DNA from: a virus
Strand: one strand, 5' to 3'
DNA: 13,225 bases
UHGV virus genome: UHGV-0112548
How positions within the stretch are numbered: the first letter of the stretch is position 1; each line of letters begins with the position of its first letter. Below are positions 4,046 through 12,737 of the stretch, one piece after another. The notes beneath the pieces are model-generated. The model saw nothing but the letters and a program-made list of their open reading frames with translations, had not been told where the DNA came from and did no database searches. The position numbers were made by a program, and so were the translations under genes.

Positions 4046-4140
4046 TTCTGTCTCCCGTTAAATTACGTTAAGCAGAAATGTAGGATATCCAACATACCAA
4101 TGTCAAGAATCCTACATGGGCATGTGGTAGGATTGCCTAC
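4046..4140. promoter_or_regulatory. divergent PR / PRM-like promoter-operator region
   Basis: On the minus strand: TTGACA (plus 4101-4106), 18-bp spacer, TACATT (plus 4077-4082) with the 18-bp operator ATGTAGGATATCCAACAT (4078-4095) over the spacer and -10. A second symmetric element AATCCTAC-N11-GTAGGATT (4108-4134) overlaps a TAGGAT -10-like hexamer 7 nt before the cI ATG, implying a leaderless cI mRNA as at lambda PRM. Confidence 0.55.
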
Positions 4141-4794
4141 ATGATGAACATGAGTGATCGTATTCGCCAAAGGCGAAAAGAACTGAACCTGACACAACAA
4201 GCACTGGCTGATTTGACTGGTGTGAACCGTGTCACGGTTACTGGATGGGAAAAGGACGACTACCAACCAAATGGAGCCAACCTTCAAGCCCTAGCCAACG
4301 CACTTAAATGCGATCCTCTGTGGCTTGTTAGCGGAAAAGGCTCGCCTGAACCAAAGATAAATCTAAAACCTGAAATATTCGCAGTTAAAAAAGTCCCCCT
4401 CATCTCGTGGGTTCAGGCGGGTTCATGGACAATGACGGAGCCTGGTGTCAGGAAAGAAGATGCTGAAGAGTGGGTTTATACTACCGCCCTTGTATCAGAA
4501 ATGGCATTTGCACTACGGGTCCGTGGTGATTCAATGACCAATCCCCTCGGCTCACCATCGATACCAGAAGGTTCTATCGTTATCGTAGAGCCAGATATTA
4601 TTGATACAGAGTGTATTAACGGAAAAATCGTTGTTGCCCATATCAATGGTGGGCAAGAAGCGACACTCAAAAAATTTGTTGAGGACTGGCCGAACAGGTA
4701 TCTCGTCCCACTAAATCCTAACTATAAAACTATTGAATGCGGTGAGAACTGCAGAATAGTTGGTCTTGTCAAACAAGTAATAATGGATTTTTGA
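4141..4794 (+). CDS. cI: CI-type prophage repressor (HTH_XRE N-domain + S24 LexA-like autopeptidase C-domain)
   Basis: 217 aa; N-terminal HTH (LNLTQQALADLTGVNRVTVTGWE), C-terminal serine motif VRGDSM and downstream lysine (ATLKKF); divergent from cro across an operator region; no SD upstream. Confidence 0.85.
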   Translation: MMNMSDRIRQRRKELNLTQQALADLTGVNRVTVTGWEKDDYQPNGANLQALANALKCDPLWLVSGKGSPEPKINLKPEIFAVKKVPLISWVQAGSWTMTEPGVRKEDAEEWVYTTALVSEMAFALRVRGDSMTNPLGSPSIPEGSIVIVEPDIIDTECINGKIVVAHINGGQEATLKKFVEDWPNRYLVPLNPNYKTIECGENCRIVGLVKQVIMDF

Positions 4795-4856: not shown

Positions 4857-4910
4857 ATGTAGGATAACCAACATAAACTCTTGACACTCACATGTTGGAT
4901 ATCCTACATT
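4857..4910 (+). promoter_or_regulatory. PL / OL-like promoter-operator
   Basis: TTGACA at 4881-4886, 18-bp spacer, TACATT at 4905-4910. Operator ATGTTGGATATCCTACAT (4892-4909) is the exact reverse complement of the PR operator at 4078-4095; a second copy ATGTAGGATAACCAACAT lies at 4857-4874. Confidence 0.55.
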
Positions 4911-4992
4911 TGTTTTTAGAGTAGCCGCCGGTGGCATATGAATAACCGGATGATTCGCTGACAGAAAACTTAGGTTGGGGGTAGAGGTTTAC

Positions 4993-5358
4993 ATGAATCA
5001 TTTATTCACATGCTCATTTTGCGGAGCAACCGAACTGGGAGCGATAAAGATCGTCGCAAAAGGTGGTAAGGACGAACCTGCCATCTGTTCGGAATGCGTA
5101 GTCACATGTGTAGAAAAAATGATCCTGACTAAAAAATCAGAGGCTGAAAAACCAACCTCTGATAACGAAATAATATCAGTCGATAAAAAACTATTTAAAG
5201 AGCTTCTTCAGCTTGTCCTCAACCTTCCTGATTTCGGAAGTAAGCTGGCTGCTGTTGACATTGATAGTAGCTCCACATCGACAAGTGAAACTTTTGTTCG
5301 ACTTGAGCCAAGCGATTTTCTTCTTCGTCTTAGTGCCGCACTTAGGGCATGCGGGTAA
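4993..5358 (+). CDS. small protein with ClpX-type C4 zinc finger (ClpX N-terminal zinc-binding-domain-like)
   Basis: First ORF downstream of the PL-like promoter; ATG at 4993 after a GGGGGTAGAGG SD (the track start at 4975 is an alternative). CSFCGATELGAIKIVAKGGKDEPAICSECVVTC parallels ClpX [30 protein letters not shown]; no AAA+ module follows. Confidence 0.55.
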   Translation: MNHLFTCSFCGATELGAIKIVAKGGKDEPAICSECVVTCVEKMILTKKSEAEKPTSDNEIISVDKKLFKELLQLVLNLPDFGSKLAAVDIDSSSTSTSETFVRLEPSDFLLRLSAALRACG

Positions 5359-5388
5359 CGTAATTTCCTGGTTATCAAAAGCGCCCAT
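5191..5388 (-). CDS. small zinc-ribbon protein, antisense to the 3' half of the ClpX-zinc-finger gene
   Basis: 65 aa from the second ATG (5388), which has an AAGAGGG SD about 7 nt upstream. Contains CPKCG..(18 aa)..CRCG and a Lys-rich tail. Overlaps 5191..5358 of the plus-strand ORF, so one of the two may be a shadow ORF. Confidence 0.4.
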   Translation of the reverse strand: MGAFDNQEITLPACPKCGTKTKKKIAWLKSNKSFTCRCGATINVNSSQLTSEIRKVEDKLKKLFK

Positions 5389-5481
5389 AAACATCCCTCT
5401 TGGTTGTGTGAGAACACCAAGATACCACCGCGCCTGATGTGGTTAAAAGCAGGCTAAAGCAATAACAAGTAACTCCCTGTT

Positions 5482-5531
5482 CTGGCGGCCCGGTGTTTTC
5501 CCGTGTATTTCCGGTAACCGCCAGCCTTTTT
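5482..5531 (+). terminator. putative terminator-like hairpin (tL-like) in the leader upstream of rdgC
   Basis: CTGGCGG (5482-5488) pairs with CCGCCAG (5519-5525) around a ~30-nt loop, followed by CCTTTTTC. The loop is long for a classic terminator. Confidence 0.3.
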
Positions 5532-5536
5532 CAGGG

Positions 5537-5648
5537 CACAACAGAAAAGGGCATCACCGGGCGACGGGCTCATAACCCAATCCACCCGGGCAAAAAGAAA
5601 GCGGTCTCTGCAAGCCGCCGACCAATGCAGGTGCCCTTCTCTGTTGTG
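5537..5648. other. long-range inverted repeat (17 bp, one mismatch) enclosing ~78 nt; predicted long RNA stem in the early-left leader
   Basis: CACAACAGAAAAGGGCA at 5537-5553 versus TGCCCTTCTCTGTTGTG at 5632-5648 (reverse complement CACAACAGAGAAGGGCA). Confidence 0.4.
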
Positions 5649-5700
5649 TATGGAGAAACTAACTTTTTAGCGCCGGTGCAGAGGCGTTGAGGAACCGAGA

Positions 5701-6618
5701 ATGAACAATCCGTTTTTCAAAAATATGTTGGTGTATCGCATTAGTCGCGATTTCACCATCAACCAGGAAGAGCTGGAACAGCAGCTTGAACTATTTCGCT
5801 TCACTCCATGCGGTAGCCAGGATATGGCAAAAACCGGTTGGGTATCACCACTTGGTCAGCTGTCAGATCGCTTGCATCACACTGTCAATAATCAAGTGTT
5901 GTTGGTTATTCGCCGGGAAGAAAAAATACTGCCATCTCCTGTCATTGCTGAAGAACTGCGCAAGCGTGTGTCGCGTCTGGAATCCGATCAGGGGCGTCGC
6001 CTCAAAAAAACTGAGAAAGATTCGCTGCGTGATGAAGTGTTGCACTCCCTGCTTCCTCGGGCGTTCTCCAAAAACTCGACTGTTAGTTTGTGGATCAACG
6101 TCACCGACGGTCTGATCATGGTTGATGCAGCCAGCGCTAAACGTGCCGAAGACTCACTGGCCCTGCTTCGTAAAACTCTCGGTTCTCTCCCGGTGGTACC
6201 GCTGACTATGGAAACGCCGATCGAACTAACTATGACCGAATGGGTTCGTTCCGGTAGTGCGCCTGCTGGCTTTGGCCTGGGTGATGAAGCCGAACTGAAA
6301 GCTATTCTTGAAGATGGCGGTATTGGACGCTTTAAAAAACAGACTCTGGTCAGTGACGAAATTCATGTGCATCTGGAAGCTGGCAAAGTAGTTACAAAGC
6401 TGTCTATCGACTGGCAACAGCGCATTCAGTTCGTTCTTTGCGATGACGGCAGCATCAAACGCCTTAAGTTCTCTAATGAGATTACAGAACAAAACGACGA
6501 TATCGACCGTGAGGATGCGGCTCAGAGGTTCGACGCTGACTTTGTTCTGATGACCGGCGAGCTTATCTCTCTCATTAACGGATTAACAACCTCTCTCGGC
6601 GGCGAAGCCAAGCGATAA
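5701..6618 (+). CDS. rdgC: RdgC-family recombination-associated protein (prophage-borne paralogue)
   Basis: 305 aa; [62 protein letters not shown] and [14 protein letters not shown] track E. coli RdgC along its full length as I recall it. GAGGAA SD before the ATG. Confidence 0.85.
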
Positions 6619-6726
6619 ACACCAGGCAACAATTACCCCCATAAGCATGGGTTGGGTTGCTGCACGCTAAATTCAGCAATTCATTAATTTAATGGCGCGG
6701 TGCAGCGCGCCAATATGGAGAAAACC

Positions 6727-7266
6727 ATGAGCTACATTCAGACATTATCCGGCAAACATTTTAATTACCTCGATATCCAACAGGACGATATCGTGATCGA
6801 GGATATTGCTACCGCGTTGTCTCATATCTGCCGCTTTGCAGGGCATCTTCCTGAGTTTTACAGCGTCGGCCAGCATAGCGTTTTAACCAGCCATCTCGTT
6901 CCGCAGGAGTTTGCCTTAGAAGCACTGCTTCATGATGCCGCCGAAGCCTACCTGCAAGATATTCCCTCACCGCTTAAGCGCCTGTTACCGGATTACCAGG
7001 TGATCGAAGCTCGCGTAGACGCTGCTATTCGCCAGAAATTTGGCCTACCGACGGAGCAACACCCAACAGTGAAATATGCCGATCTGGTGATGCTCGCCAG
7101 CGAACGCCGCGATTTTGAGATTGACGAAGGTTCCGTGTGGCCATGCCTCGATGGCGTTGTCCCGACGGACCTATTCATCATCAATCCAGTTCGTCCAGGC
7201 CAGTCATACGGCATGTTCATAAATCGCTTTAATGAGTTGATGGAGCAGCGTCAATGCGCCGCATGA
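6727..7266 (+). CDS. HD-domain phosphohydrolase (YfdR-like 5'-deoxynucleotidase class)
   Basis: His at LSHICRFAGH and the HD dyad at EALLHDAAEAY fit the HD superfamily. Start chosen at the ATG at 6727 with GGAG 6 nt upstream; the track start at 6700 is a GTG. Confidence 0.6.
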   Translation: MSYIQTLSGKHFNYLDIQQDDIVIEDIATALSHICRFAGHLPEFYSVGQHSVLTSHLVPQEFALEALLHDAAEAYLQDIPSPLKRLLPDYQVIEARVDAAIRQKFGLPTEQHPTVKYADLVMLASERRDFEIDEGSVWPCLDGVVPTDLFIINPVRPGQSYGMFINRFNELMEQRQCAA

Positions 7267-7430
7267 AGGTAAAAGAACTCGTGGCGGAGGCGTTTGCCTC
7301 CGTGGCTGAATTGCCACCAAAGCATGCATCGCTTATGCGCGAAGTCGCTACCAGGCTTGAAGCTACGTTCGCAGCATTAACCGAATCATTGGCGCAACTG
7401 GAACAGGAACGTAAAGGTAAAACGCAATGA
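7254..7430 (+). CDS. hypothetical small protein (58 aa)
   Basis: Not in the ORF track (under 60 aa). My translation: MRRMKVKELVAEAFASVAELPPKHASLMREVATRLEATFAALTESLAQLEQERKGKTQ. Start overlaps the HD-gene 3' end and the stop overlaps the next ATG as ATGA, consistent with translational coupling. Confidence 0.35.
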   Translation: MRRMKVKELVAEAFASVAELPPKHASLMREVATRLEATFAALTESLAQLEQERKGKTQ

Positions 7431-7681
7431 CCGTATTTGAATATCTCCAGGGCCACCCGAACGCCACCAGCGGTGAAATCGCAAGGGCGATGGGTAAAAA
7501 GACGCCAGCCGTAGCCAGCGCACTATCTCAGCTTTATGCAACAGGGAGAATTGTTAAGTCTGGCGCACGCGGTGGGATACCGACATACCGCGTCAATGAT
7601 CTGCCGTTTGGATGCAGCAATAACTTAACGCTGATATTTAACCAGCTTCTGCGAAACGTCCGCAAAGGAGCAGCCCAATGA
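7427..7681 (+). CDS. small winged-helix-like DNA-binding protein
   Basis: 84 aa; SGEIARAMGKKTPAVASALSQLYATGRI has the helix-turn-helix / wing pattern; ATGA overlaps at both ends. Confidence 0.45.
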   Translation: MTVFEYLQGHPNATSGEIARAMGKKTPAVASALSQLYATGRIVKSGARGGIPTYRVNDLPFGCSNNLTLIFNQLLRNVRKGAAQ

Positions 7682-7995
7682 GCAAATTTACGGCATTACC
7701 AGTAGAACGCGACCAATACGGCTACTGGACTCACCCCGTCTATGAGCAATTTTGCGATGGTCGTGAATTTATCTCACCTGATGAGTTCAACGCCTGGCTG
7801 GATAAAAACGGCCTCGAATGGACGGTAGTTTACCGGGATGAAGAAGACATCGATCCTGAAGTTGATGGTTACGATATTTCAGCCTGGCAGCCAGAATCGC
7901 CAGCCGGTGAAGGTTGGTTTGTCGGTTCAATTCACAACACCGAAGATGGCGCGGTATGCATCTGGTTACGTAACGTTGAAGGCGGTGCAGCATGA
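7678..7995 (+). CDS. hypothetical phage protein
   Basis: 105-aa ORF, coupled to neighbours by ATGA overlaps; acidic, no motif I recognise. Confidence 0.5.
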   Translation: MSKFTALPVERDQYGYWTHPVYEQFCDGREFISPDEFNAWLDKNGLEWTVVYRDEEDIDPEVDGYDISAWQPESPAGEGWFVGSIHNTEDGAVCIWLRNVEGGAA

Positions 7996-8750
7996 CAGTC
8001 CATACACTGAAGCAATGCCGCCCGGACCAAGAAGAAACCGAGTATTTCTGGAAGTTGTTTCATGCGGCACAACGGAATGACGCTCGCTGGCACGGTAGTG
8101 AAATCAGCATTATCGCCGATGAACTATCCCGGACGGATTTAGATCGTAATCAAAAACTGTTTCTTCTCCGTGCCTGGCAAGTGCTGGTAGACGACAAAGG
8201 TGGATTCGGGCGCTTGATGGGTGCCTTTGATACTTACGTCTACAACATGCAGGACCCTGATGATGACTGCGTAGCCTGGAAGCCTGAACTGGCTAAGCTG
8301 CTACAGGATGGCAATCTGTTTGATGTTGTGCTGACGGCATATCAGGAGGCCTGCCATGAGGGGATCGTTAATTGGGAGGCAGCGGTATCTCTTTCTGAGG
8401 AAAACGTAGAACTGAAGCGCAAACTCTACGCAGCAGAGAATCAAATAGCAGAACTGGAGGCGCGGACGTTCAATCCTGCAATTCTAGATGTGATAGCAGA
8501 GCGCCAGCGGCAGAAAGCCGTTGAGGGCTGGACGTCTGAGCATGACGACGCCTATCAAAACAGTGAGCTGGCAGATGCTGCAGCTTGCTATGCGATTAAC
8601 GCACACAATCAAGGCCTCTCAACGCCAGCGCATTGGCCGTGGGCTCCTGATTGGTGGAAGCAATCTGGGCCGCGTCGTGACCTTGTGAAAGCTGGCGCAC
8701 TTATTCTGGCCGAAATTGAACGCATAGACCGCCAGGAGGCCGCCCAATGA
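7992..8750 (+). CDS. hypothetical phage protein with central coiled coil (possibly Ead/Ea22-like)
   Basis: 252 aa; coiled-coil segment NVELKRKLYAAENQIAELEART; C-terminal WTSEHDDAYQNSELADAAACYA. The family label is a recollection only. Confidence 0.5.
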   Translation: MTVHTLKQCRPDQEETEYFWKLFHAAQRNDARWHGSEISIIADELSRTDLDRNQKLFLLRAWQVLVDDKGGFGRLMGAFDTYVYNMQDPDDDCVAWKPELAKLLQDGNLFDVVLTAYQEACHEGIVNWEAAVSLSEENVELKRKLYAAENQIAELEARTFNPAILDVIAERQRQKAVEGWTSEHDDAYQNSELADAAACYAINAHNQGLSTPAHWPWAPDWWKQSGPRRDLVKAGALILAEIERIDRQEAAQ

Positions 8751-9139
8751 GCAACATCAACAAACGCGCAACAGAGATGCTGATTGAAAACGGAGTGCTG
8801 GTTGCCGACACGCTGAGGCGTTTGGCTGATAACGAAATCGACTCCGATTACTTTGCTATTTGCCACACAAACGAAAACGGAACTGAAATTGAATGCGAGC
8901 TGGCAATTACAGATTACGCACGCCAATCTGCTGGAATCGTTGATGATCTGGTAAATGCGCTGGAAGCCGCAGAGAAGCGCATTGCAGAACTGGAAGCGCG
9001 GGAAATATCGCTCCCAGAACTTAGCAGCATGCTTCATCGAACAGATTTTCACGAGGATTACCAAACGGTAATGGCATACAAAGTTTCTGAGGTCATCGCT
9101 GCAATCCGCGCCGCTGGCATTCGCATCAAAGGAGAGTGA
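8747..9139 (+). CDS. hypothetical phage protein with coiled coil
   Basis: 130 aa; AEKRIAELEARE repeats the motif of the upstream gene; ATGA coupling at the start. Confidence 0.5.
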   Translation: MSNINKRATEMLIENGVLVADTLRRLADNEIDSDYFAICHTNENGTEIECELAITDYARQSAGIVDDLVNALEAAEKRIAELEAREISLPELSSMLHRTDFHEDYQTVMAYKVSEVIAAIRAAGIRIKGE

Positions 9140-9140
9140 T

Positions 9141-9575
9141 ATGGCGTTAACACACCGCGAACTCTGTCAGATTGCGTACAAGTTCCTTAAGCGCAACGGG
9201 TTCAAGGTTTGTTTTCATGACCGCTTTATAGCTGTAACCAGTACCGGAGAACAGCCAGATGCTATGGGATTCAGAAATTCAGCATCATGCCTGATAGAGG
9301 CGAAATGTTCTCGTGCTGACTTGTTGGCAGATAGAAAAAAGCGTTTTCGTAAAAATCCGTCTCTTGGAATGGGCGACTGGCGATTCTTTATTAGTGAGCC
9401 GGGAATTATTTCAATTGAGGATTTACCACCTGGCTGGGGATTACTTCACGTTGTTAACGGAAGAGTACGGAAAGTGCATGGGTGCCCAAGGGTAATTGCT
9501 GTTGGGGTAATCCTGACGATAAGCCATTTACTGGAAATAAGCAGGTTGAATGCGATTACATGTTATCTGCATTAA
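9141..9575 (+). CDS. PD-(D/E)xK nuclease-fold protein (VRR-NUC-like); C-terminus possibly frameshifted
   Basis: GEQPDAMGF followed by CLIEAKCS gives a PD...(E)xK arrangement. After about residue 105 the frame looks poor, while another frame (9458..9655) reads protein-like and ends in ATGA overlap with the next gene. Confidence 0.5.
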   Translation: MALTHRELCQIAYKFLKRNGFKVCFHDRFIAVTSTGEQPDAMGFRNSASCLIEAKCSRADLLADRKKRFRKNPSLGMGDWRFFISEPGIISIEDLPPGWGLLHVVNGRVRKVHGCPRVIAVGVILTISHLLEISRLNAITCYLH

Positions 9576-9651
9576 GGCGCATGGAGTTGAGAGGGCACCT
9601 TAATGAAATATATGACGGTGTAATTGTTAATAAGAAAGAAGGAAACGCGGC

Positions 9652-10353
9652 ATGATCACTATTACCAAAGAGCGACTGCTGACAATCAAGCAGTGGCGCG
9701 AAACATACGGACCTGGTAGCAACGTTGTACTGCCAGCAGAAGAAGCGGAAGAACTGGCACGAATTGCTCTGGCATCGCTGGAAGCAGAGCCTATTGGTGA
9801 GGTTTCAGAGAAGCGACTCGGCCTTGTTATGGATGGAACGGTAGACCTTGGCGGGAAATCAACTTATCGCATCATTAAGGGAGAAAAAGCGATGAAGTTG
9901 TTGCCGCTGGGGACGAAGTTTTATGCCGCCCCTCCAGTGCCAGTAGTACCGGAAGAAAAACCAATGCCTAACCCTCTTAAAATGTACGCGGTTGATGCTG
10001 TTGCCGCTATTGCAGAGGTGAGAGGCTGGAACGCCTGTCGTGCCGCTATGCTTCAGGGTAAATCCGAACAACCACAAAACGCACAACAAAATATTCCGGA
10101 AAATATTCACGGTGGCAACTCTCCGGTAACTCCGGATGGTTGGATAAGCTGTAGTGATCGAATGCCGGAAAAGAATCAGAACGTGCTTATTTCAGTGAAT
10201 TTCGATAGCTCTCTGGTTGAACCGCTAATATGCTCCGCACGCTATACCGGAAGCACCTTTCGGCGCGGAGATGCAACGATTAAGCCGGGTAATGGTATTG
10301 AGCAAGCAACTCACTGGATGCCGCTACCGGAACCGCCGCAGGAGGTGAAGTAA
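9652..10353 (+). CDS. DUF551-like phage protein
   Basis: 233 aa; C-terminal DGWISCSDRMPE ... ATHWMPLPEPP resembles the conserved end of DUF551-family phage proteins (from memory). Confidence 0.55.
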   Translation: MITITKERLLTIKQWRETYGPGSNVVLPAEEAEELARIALASLEAEPIGEVSEKRLGLVMDGTVDLGGKSTYRIIKGEKAMKLLPLGTKFYAAPPVPVVPEEKPMPNPLKMYAVDAVAAIAEVRGWNACRAAMLQGKSEQPQNAQQNIPENIHGGNSPVTPDGWISCSDRMPEKNQNVLISVNFDSSLVEPLICSARYTGSTFRRGDATIKPGNGIEQATHWMPLPEPPQEVK

Positions 10354-10925
10354 TGAATAACTTAATGATCGACCTTGAGACGATGGGGAAAAATAAGGAT
10401 GCACCGATCGTTTCCATTGGCGCGGTGTTCTTCACTCCAGAAACCGGAGACATCGAACAAGAATTCTATACGGTTGTTAGCCTGGAAAGTGCTATGGAGC
10501 AAGGAGCTACACCTGACGGCGATACCATCCTGTGGTGGTTGAAACAGAGCTCTGAAGCACGAGCTGCAATCTGTATTGATGATACTTTGTCGATCAGCGA
10601 TGCACTCTCTGAACTGAGCCATTTCATTAATCAGCATGCAGACAATACAAAATATTTAAAAGTCTGGGGTAACGGGGCCACCTTCGACAACGTAATTTTA
10701 CGTGGAGCTTACGAGCGAGCAGGACAAATCTGCCCGTGGGCGTACTGGAATGACCACGATGTACGCACGATCATTACGCTTGGGCGTTCCATCGGATTCG
10801 ACCCAAAAATGGACATGCCTTTCGATGGCGAACGGCACAACGCCCTGGCTGATGCCCGTCATCAGGCAAAATATGTTTCCGCTATCTGGCAGAAACTAAT
10901 TCCTGCCACCAGCACAGAATTATGA
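10353..10925 (+). CDS. DEDD-type 3'-5' exonuclease
   Basis: 190 aa; Exo I motif MIDLETMG, mid-protein VWGNGATFDNVIL, C-terminal HNALADARHQAKY (H-x4-D), the DEDDh pattern. Start overlaps the upstream stop as TAATG. Confidence 0.7.
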   Translation: MNNLMIDLETMGKNKDAPIVSIGAVFFTPETGDIEQEFYTVVSLESAMEQGATPDGDTILWWLKQSSEARAAICIDDTLSISDALSELSHFINQHADNTKYLKVWGNGATFDNVILRGAYERAGQICPWAYWNDHDVRTIITLGRSIGFDPKMDMPFDGERHNALADARHQAKYVSAIWQKLIPATSTEL

Positions 10926-10961
10926 TTTTCCCGGGTGCAGCCGGTTTTGATGGAGAAAATT

Positions 10962-11243
10962 ATGAACACCTTGTTTTTACTGATGGCTGAATTCAATACC
11001 CCTAACATTGAACTCTCAGCAGTTAGCCAGAAGTACTTTGGCATGAGTCCAGCCACGGCAGAAGCAAAAGCAAACGCTTGTAAGTTGCCCGTTCCAACAT
11101 ATCGCATCGGCACATCACAAAAAGCAAAACGTTGCATCAATATTCAGGATCTTGCGGAATACATAGACAAAAGACGAGAAGAAGGACGTATCGAGTGGGA
11201 ACAGGTCAGAACAGGCAAACAGAAGGGCAAAGAACATCACTAA
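10962..11243 (+). CDS. PrtN / excisionase-like small DNA-binding protein
   Basis: Start at the ATG at 10962 with GGAG 6 nt upstream (MNTLFLLMAEF..); resembles PrtN-family proteins as I recall them; last gene of the plus-strand operon. Confidence 0.5.
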   Translation: MNTLFLLMAEFNTPNIELSAVSQKYFGMSPATAEAKANACKLPVPTYRIGTSQKAKRCINIQDLAEYIDKRREEGRIEWEQVRTGKQKGKEHH

Positions 11244-12197: not shown

Positions 12198-12737
12198 AGA
12201 CTCTCAAGCGGAACACTAAAAATCTCATTATATCTCATTCTGATGCCCGGCATGGATTACACCTTGAAATGAAAACACCGGGTTCCCAATAGGCTCCCAC
12301 AAAGTGTATAACTACTTGTTTTTCAAAAACGGTACATCCTATCGAGCATTGGTGCAACGCTAAACCGACCACTCCAGTGAACGTCAGTTTTTTCAGGCAT
12401 TGCGCTGGTTTGGTTGATTTTTTGCATTTCAGAATTACCGTGCATTTTCAAATGTAGAGATTATTTTATCGATATATCATGGGGTTATGTTATTCAGCAT
12501 CACTATTCAGGAGGCTCAATAGCGGGGTACTATACCATAACAACAGGAAGCGCCTGTCTCATTGCAAAAGAAAATTGAGATCCTCTCAAGGCATGAAGCT
12601 CTCACGAAGTGATGGAAATAATCTTATTAGCCGTTAACTTTGTTAAGGCCAATGATAAACAATCCAGGTTCGACGATAAATAAAAAATCACACATTAAAC
12701 TCTGGTGATATATCTCCCTGCTAATAGCATTGATAGA

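Follow-up and report, generated by a model that had tools for sequence, protein, structure and literature searches.

A predicted YfdR-family HD phosphohydrolase gene and a conserved upstream stem-loop in the putative early-left operon of an E. coli prophage

The HD gene and its place in the prophage

The window, by which we mean the whole 13,225-nt stretch of virus genome UHGV-0112548 analysed here, is 100% identical to a prophage in E. coli O68:H12 strain 97.3. It carries a gene for a YfdR-family HD-domain phosphohydrolase (hereafter the HD gene and HD protein), which is separated from an upstream rdgC homologue by an intergenic leader and is overlapped at its end by the next reading frame (Table 1). 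The identical protein of the E. coli prophage, WP_001515610.1, bears the RefSeq name 'phage protein'; for close relatives the name given is 'HD family hydrolase'. RefSeq starts the identical gene at the same ATG. A longer reading frame from a GTG at 6700 was considered and ruled out: the extension runs into a stop codon in phage 2H10 and in the L060 type and lies out of frame in ST64B. Since relatives do not conserve the extended frame, ATG 6727 is taken as the start, and the GGAG in front of it is retained at the same distance in nearly all upstream variants compared. At a dN/dS of 0.04-0.07 against relatives, the gene is under strong constraint; it is intact and encodes the full catalytic set.

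Table 1. Features of the locus, in window positions
Feature	Position	Strand	Remarks
cI-like repressor gene, LexA/S24 family	4141-4794	+	PHROG 4 transcriptional repressor, E 5e-59
19-bp operator-like palindrome ATGTWGGATATCCWACAT, 3 copies	4857-4875, 4892-4910 (PL-like); 4078-4096 (PR-like)		
PL-like sigma-70 promoter TTGACA-18-TACATT	4881-4910	+	consensus match
RdgC homologue gene	5701-6618	+	Pfam RdgC, E 8e-116
Rest of rdgC-yfdR intergenic leader	6619-6692	+	weak hairpin CCCAU-AAGC-AUGGG at 6638-6651 and a second predicted hairpin
Stem-loop uGGCGCG-GUGCAG-CGCGCCa	6693-6712	+	7 pairs; 4 nt 5' of the Shine-Dalgarno sequence
Putative Shine-Dalgarno sequence GGAG	6717-6720	+	6 nt 5' of ATG 6727; from sequence
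YfdR-family HD-domain phosphohydrolase gene	6727-7266	+	ATG to TGA, 179 aa
Metal-site codons of the HD gene	H50 6874-6876; H69-D70 6931-6936; E73 6943-6945; D78 6958-6960; D119 7081-7083	+	
58-aa ORF, helical	7254-7430	+	PHROG 12248 (unknown function); start overlaps the HD-gene end by 13 nt
Excisionase-like gene	10935-11243	+	co-oriented with the HD gene

The layout around the cI-like gene is that expected of a PL/PR region, with near-identical divergent promoters flanking the repressor gene, both carrying copies of ATGTWGGATATCCWACAT; the PR-like promoter (4106-4077) precedes a cro-like gene. The promoter and operon assignments are consensus matches. The ATGTWGGATATCCWACAT copies probably serve the prophage as its OR and OL sites, and the PL-like promoter is likely to be the start of an early-left operon that includes the HD gene, presumably under control of the cI-like repressor. 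The HD gene lies 1.8 kb downstream of this promoter, and the scan predicted no plus-strand terminator-like site between 4910 and 6727. From the HD gene onward, successive reading frames overlap by 13, 4, 4, 4 and 4 nt (the 4-nt overlaps being ATGA at 7427, 7678, 7992 and 8747), in a chain that runs to genes for a DUF551 protein, a DnaQ-type exonuclease and the excisionase-like product. The HD gene thus sits, co-oriented, between the repressor and PL on one side and xis on the other, as is typical of lambdoid early-left accessory genes. A matching layout surrounds it in ST64B, phiNP, 2H10 and the K-12 prophage CPS-53, and a survey of lambdoid phages describes this type of gene as a common early-left accessory gene (PMC12315714, 2025). 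The original prediction of an early operon is accordingly one that layout (PL-like promoter, operators, overlapping genes) and literature both support. Because such an operon is repressor-controlled, the HD gene would be expected to stay off in the lysogen and to be expressed early once the prophage is induced or a cell is infected.

The immediate neighbours of the gene vary. Among 87 related loci, rdgC lies directly upstream in 21, the window included, and yfdP-yfdQ (DUF2303) in 61, which reflects a mosaic swap upstream of the HD gene (window 5701-6726; loci L009-L088). Downstream, the 58-aa ORF follows in 83 of the 87 close loci and is absent at this place from the relatives of 64-70% identity (ST64B, phiNP, 2H10 and K-12). 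The K-12 proteins YfdP, YfdQ, YfdS and YfdT gave no tblastn match covering at least half of the query in window 4975-11243 (plus strand). No canonical recombination module (exo, bet, gam or erf) is recognisable in the early-left operon, which fits the lambdoid group with 'no Rec module' (PMC12315714), and PADLOC matched neither the HD gene nor its neighbours to any defence system.

Other observations concern the wider prophage. An unannotated 67-aa ORF with zinc-ribbon cysteines (CPKC...CRC) occupies 5191-5394 on the minus strand, where it overlaps, in antisense, the part of the annotated ClpX-type zinc-finger ORF (4975/4993-5358) that encodes its C-terminal half. Directly 3' of it lies a strong terminator-like hairpin (5136-5163, minus strand) with a 12-pair stem and a T-run. 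The ORF has no PHROG match and only weak zinc-ribbon Pfam matches; in phage 2H10 the equivalent position is occupied by a gene annotated on the minus strand. RefSeq further flags two damaged reading frames of the operon, an ead/Ea22-like gene that lacks its N-terminal part and an ORF with a frameshift (about 8774-9319; 10175-10720 in L001), and marks 105 nt of a tRNA-dihydrouridine synthase gene at the prophage edge by zur (about 12341-12445; 13742-13846 in L001). This suggests a partly decayed prophage integrated in a tRNA-dihydrouridine synthase gene, which we take to be dusA.

A conserved stem-loop in the leader

The leader contains one element that stands out by its conservation. The original prediction had pointed to a hairpin, GGCGCG-GTGCAG-CGCGCC, just upstream of the gene; it lies exactly at 6694-6711 and extends by a further pair. 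The mosaic junction with the yfdQ-type relatives falls at the 3' end of the preceding leader segment, and from the first base of the stem-loop onward the sequences are alike again. Because the stem-loop begins exactly where the homology between rdgC-type and yfdQ-type loci breaks, it belongs to the yfdR cassette.

For comparison of the hairpin, the 87 related loci and one E. coli/Shigella upstream variant (L091) were reduced to 18 distinct variants. The loop GUGCAG is unchanged in all 18, and over the same comparisons the neighbouring gene has reached saturation at its synonymous sites (pS of 0.79-0.88 when set against K-12, ST64B and the Klebsiella type). The stem shows compensatory changes, from GCGCG/CGCGC in the window to GCGCU/AGCGC in the Klebsiella type and GUGCG/CGCAC in 2H10; another type, with the stem GCGCU/GGCGU, uses wobble pairs, and K-12 yfdR has a related upstream hairpin core, GCGCGGTGCAGCGC, with its stem weakened to 4 pairs. 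In an anchored alignment the covariation score is 0.284, against a mean of 0.087 for shuffled alignments (none of 500 reached 0.284) and at most 0.112 for slid registers, a result that is suggestive rather than proof because the sample is small and its members are related. The hairpin is absent from phiNP and from Serratia relatives (63% identity), and a genome-wide scan yielded few enteric loci and added little to the test. Within the window the motif occurs as a single copy, and Rfam gave no match at gathering thresholds, and nothing but noise around the leader.

Several other readings of the leader were rejected. An intrinsic terminator is not indicated, as the hairpin has no plus-strand U-tract and the scan reported no terminator there. 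A pseudoknot between the loop GUGCAG and an upstream CUGCAC (6660-6665) was discarded since the complementarity exists in rdgC-type leaders and not in yfdQ-type ones. No promoter within the leader passed the scan, and the TTTAAT at 6688-6693 has no -35 partner. A further small hairpin, UAUGG-AGAAAA-CCAUG (6714-6729, plus strand), is predicted to pair part of the Shine-Dalgarno sequence with the start codon. Its formation depends on a leader that ends in AACCATG, and because it is lost in the GACATG and ATCATG variants it is probably incidental. The conserved stem-loop itself probably acts at the level of the mRNA on the yfdR cassette, through stability, processing or translation.

Family, fold and active site

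The HD protein aligns end to end and without gaps with E. coli K-12 YfdR (residues 1-178 on 1-178, 63% identity, E 7e-90), the product of yfdR (b2361) in prophage CPS-53, for which RefSeq gives '5'-deoxynucleotidase'. The comparison with YfdR made in the original prediction therefore holds. The two share size, catalytic residues and a prophage early-left position ahead of the xis/int end; they differ in their upstream neighbours (yfdP-yfdQ in K-12, rdgC in the window) and in the genes downstream. Among phage protein families, the HD protein matches PHROG 318, 'deoxyribonucleoside 5' monophosphate phosphatase', with an E value of 3.4e-96, and PHROG 7076, dATP triphosphohydrolase, weakly (E 1.3e-5). 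Its family is very large: a scan of 1.84 billion cluster representatives returned 23,482 relatives at E<=1e-3, which amounts to more than 23,000 clusters at 50% identity. Matches by tblastn occur in 281 phage records from many host genera; a species-level genome scan finds the family from Pseudomonadota to Actinomycetota and Bacillota, and many of its members are chromosomal bacterial genes rather than phage genes. As a separate observation, some relatives (P0122, P0124, P0125, P0139, P0169, P0194 and P0224) are tandem fusions of two YfdR-like domains, one of which has its HD dyad or adjoining residues replaced (FD, SK, SQ, RD, KD, HR or HN); judged by these replacements, the fusions look like pairs of an enzyme and a pseudo-enzyme.

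Curated profiles capture this family poorly. The HD-profile search proposed with the original prediction came close to refuting it: a YfbR-like match emerged, at 20.7 bits below the 25.9-bit threshold of Pfam PF12917, and no curated profile rose above threshold. HD_3 reached E 0.12, and the NCBIfam 5'-deoxynucleotidase equivalog NF003009 scored 16.8 bits against a cut-off of 122. The sub-threshold YfbR-like match is common to 69 of 75 diverse family members, with a best E value of 5e-8. Searches against PDB sequences found Atu1052 of Agrobacterium tumefaciens (2gz4) at E 2.8e-13 with the single protein and 5.8e-31 with the family profile, which also retrieves Lin2634 (1.5e-5) and YfbR (8.5e-5), and hhalign aligns the HD protein to YfbR with a probability of 93.9%. 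Taken together with an unambiguous fold search, the shared weak match and the profile and hhalign links settle membership of the HD superfamily (Aravind and Koonin 1998). The missed curated thresholds mark the family as a divergent branch whose substrate cannot safely be transferred from known members: the HD protein is predicted to work like YfbR, yet it falls outside the NF003009 equivalog.

The H...HD...D motif noticed originally corresponds to H50, H69-D70 and D119. In a set of 75 homologues of 41-86% identity, these residues are kept in 75, 74, 74 and 73 sequences, respectively; E73, D78 and E94 are each kept in 73 and K116 in 64. A bare H/HD/D pattern might be a coincidence, which the homology to YfdR at 63% identity, to PHROG 318 and to 23,482 cluster representatives is not. 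The segment HDAAEAYLQDIPSPLK is collinear with HDASEVLTGDLPTPVK of YfbR (2paq/2par), the shared arrangement being HD..E....D.....K, and R36-F37, ahead of the first His, matches R18-W19 of YfbR by eye. The two proteins differ in the spacing from the first His to the HD dyad (19 residues in the HD protein, 35 in YfbR), and the HD protein is modelled with an extra N-terminal beta-hairpin. In DatZ, the dATP triphosphohydrolase of cyanophage S-2L, metal site A is formed by H34/H66/D67/D119 and site B by E70/D75, with K116 neutralising phosphate and E93 conserved (PMC8065100). By motif spacing, rather than by residue-level structural alignment, the counterparts in the HD protein would be H50/H69/D70/D119 for site A, E73/D78 for site B, and K116 and E94. 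The HD protein thus appears to have all the metal-site residues and the phosphate-binding lysine of its solved relatives YfbR and DatZ.

An AlphaFold run with a single sequence gave a pLDDT of 33 and was replaced by one with the 75-sequence alignment as input, which reached a pLDDT of 97.5 and a pTM of 0.92. The resulting model has a predicted all-helical HD fold, and its superposition on Atu1052 takes in both the N-terminal beta-hairpin and the C-terminal helix. In structure comparison, Atu1052 gives a value of 23.2 with 178 residues aligned; PH0347, DatZ, HDDC2, YfbR, OxsA and AF1432 follow at 9.2-9.6, and cyclic-nucleotide HD phosphodiesterases (PgpH, V-cGAP3, HD-GYP) at 4.1-5.3. Foldseek concurs, and among predicted structures from viruses it is HD proteins encoded by phiCbK, phiKT and Agrobacterium phage Atu_ph04 that match best. 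Atu1052, at 26-28% identity, is chromosomally encoded, was deposited as 'unknown function' and has insertions by the H50 helix; a literature search for Atu1052 and for HD-domain phage deoxynucleotidases found no papers. Since YfbR, DatZ and OxsA are equidistant from the HD protein, structure does not pick out a phosphate chain length.

Proposed function and what it means

Our preferred reading, which we hold to be probable, is that the HD protein is a YfdR-family single-domain HD phosphohydrolase that carries out metal-dependent (deoxy)nucleotide dephosphorylation from the early-left operon. It would bind either a single divalent cation or two of them (relatives use Co2+, Mn2+ or Zn2+), and a metal-activated water would remove phosphate from a (deoxy)nucleotide. 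By analogy with the report on K-12 YfdR, 5'-dNMPs would be the most probable substrates, and their hydrolysis would shift nucleotide pools in lytic growth; as for K-12 YfdR, an added role may be to bind DnaA domain I and damp initiation of host replication. We place dephosphorylation first among the mechanisms on the ground that catalytic residues hardly vary across phyla and phage types. The original proposal that such an enzyme could reshape dNMP/dNTP pools accords with the published account of YfdR.

The name of the activity needs some care. Phage T5 Dmp, a deoxynucleoside-5'-monophosphatase, is expressed early and has nominally the activity after which PHROG and RefSeq name the phage homologues of YfdR. 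As a homologue, or as the source of the dNMP-phosphatase name, it was rejected (best E 0.88); because there is no sequence similarity, Dmp and YfdR share the name by analogy and not by homology. Dmp itself, as we read its sequence, has a DxDGT motif of the kind typical of HAD phosphatases.

Several points count against the main reading. A dNMP phosphatase brings no obvious benefit to a temperate phage that leaves the host DNA undegraded, and the missed curated thresholds mark a divergent branch. PMC4776307, citing Zimmerman 2008, describes YfdR as structurally homologous to YfbR but with nucleotide affinities far below those of YfbR, and says that its function 'remains elusive'; according to PMC10870394, deletion of yfdR in an engineered strain did not raise the yield of CMP.

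The original prediction missed the published DnaA-binding activity of YfdR, described in PMC4776307, which offers a different view of what is selected: the protein would bind DnaA domain I near Phe46, outcompete DiaA and DnaB and hold back host initiation, with catalysis secondary or otherwise used. K-12 YfdR, 63% identical to the HD protein, is reported there to bind DnaA directly and in a Phe46-dependent manner and to inhibit DiaA-DnaA and DnaB-DnaA binding moderately. Multicopy yfdQRST inhibits initiation (PMC4776307; restated in PMC5448010 and PMC12122000), and the authors propose a role in phage growth like that of lambda P (PMC4776307). Yet the same paper states that the effect in vivo required the entire yfdQRST at high copy and may be an overexpression artefact. 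The window has rdgC in place of yfdQ, and neither YfdS nor YfdT gives a tblastn match covering at least half of the query; because this prophage lacks yfdQ and a close YfdS or YfdT, a DnaA role is weakened for the HD protein. A family that extends from Actinomycetota to Bacillota and into many unrelated phages with near-invariant catalytic residues also argues that catalysis is the selected activity, and we regard the inhibitory role as possible but doubtful.

Substrates other than dNMPs are considered less likely. A (d)NTP triphosphohydrolase of the DatZ/OxsA kind, or a stepwise tri/di/monophosphatase, that clears one particular, damaged or modified nucleotide would accord with the conservation of both metal sites and of the lysine whose role in DatZ is to neutralise the phosphate chain, and with the weak match to PHROG 7076. 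We consider it unlikely: assays have been reported for one family member, YfdR, and that one is called a 5'-deoxynucleotidase; modified-base synthesis partners (purZ, dpoZ and others) were not found in the window. DatZ (6zpa; 19% identity to the HD protein) pairs with PurZ to make Z-DNA, and no such partner lies in the window; specificity residues are not mappable at 19-22% identity. Some HD-domain enzymes are cyclic-nucleotide phosphodiesterases, and the original prediction had raised degradation of nucleotide second messengers used by host defence. Early expression would suit an anti-defence enzyme that attacks the nucleotide messengers, cyclic oligonucleotides among them, on which CBASS, Pycsar, Thoeris or type III CRISPR rely, and PMC4776307 leaves the physiological substrate of the family unsettled. 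Nothing was found in support of it. The HD-protein sequence lacks the GYP motif, which sets it apart from the HD-GYP and PgpH phosphodiesterases; its fold is far from those of the cyclic-nucleotide phosphodiesterases; many family members are chromosomal rather than phage-borne; and no anti-defence role was found in the consulted papers that mention YfdR. We therefore rate this reading as highly improbable. We also hold unlikely a linked pair of proposals: that the GUGCAG stem-loop, which accompanies the yfdR cassette across mosaic junctions, is a new cis-acting RNA element, perhaps recognised by a protein or RNase that governs when or how much YfdR is made, and that the family in phages serves a take-over of host replication through DnaA domain I or the hydrolysis of a non-canonical nucleotide, not bulk dNMP dephosphorylation.

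In our preferred reading of a nucleotide phosphohydrolase, identification of the gene is already known: it is an intact prophage copy of the YfdR family in its usual lambdoid place. For all the size of the family, the HD protein scored below threshold with every curated Pfam and NCBIfam model; the sole studied member, YfdR, combines weak nucleotidase activity with unexpected DnaA binding (PMC4776307). What the YfdR family does for an inducible phage is thus a small, long-standing question, and the conserved stem-loop, the sole mildly new item at this locus, is a testable candidate for post-transcriptional control of the yfdR cassette.
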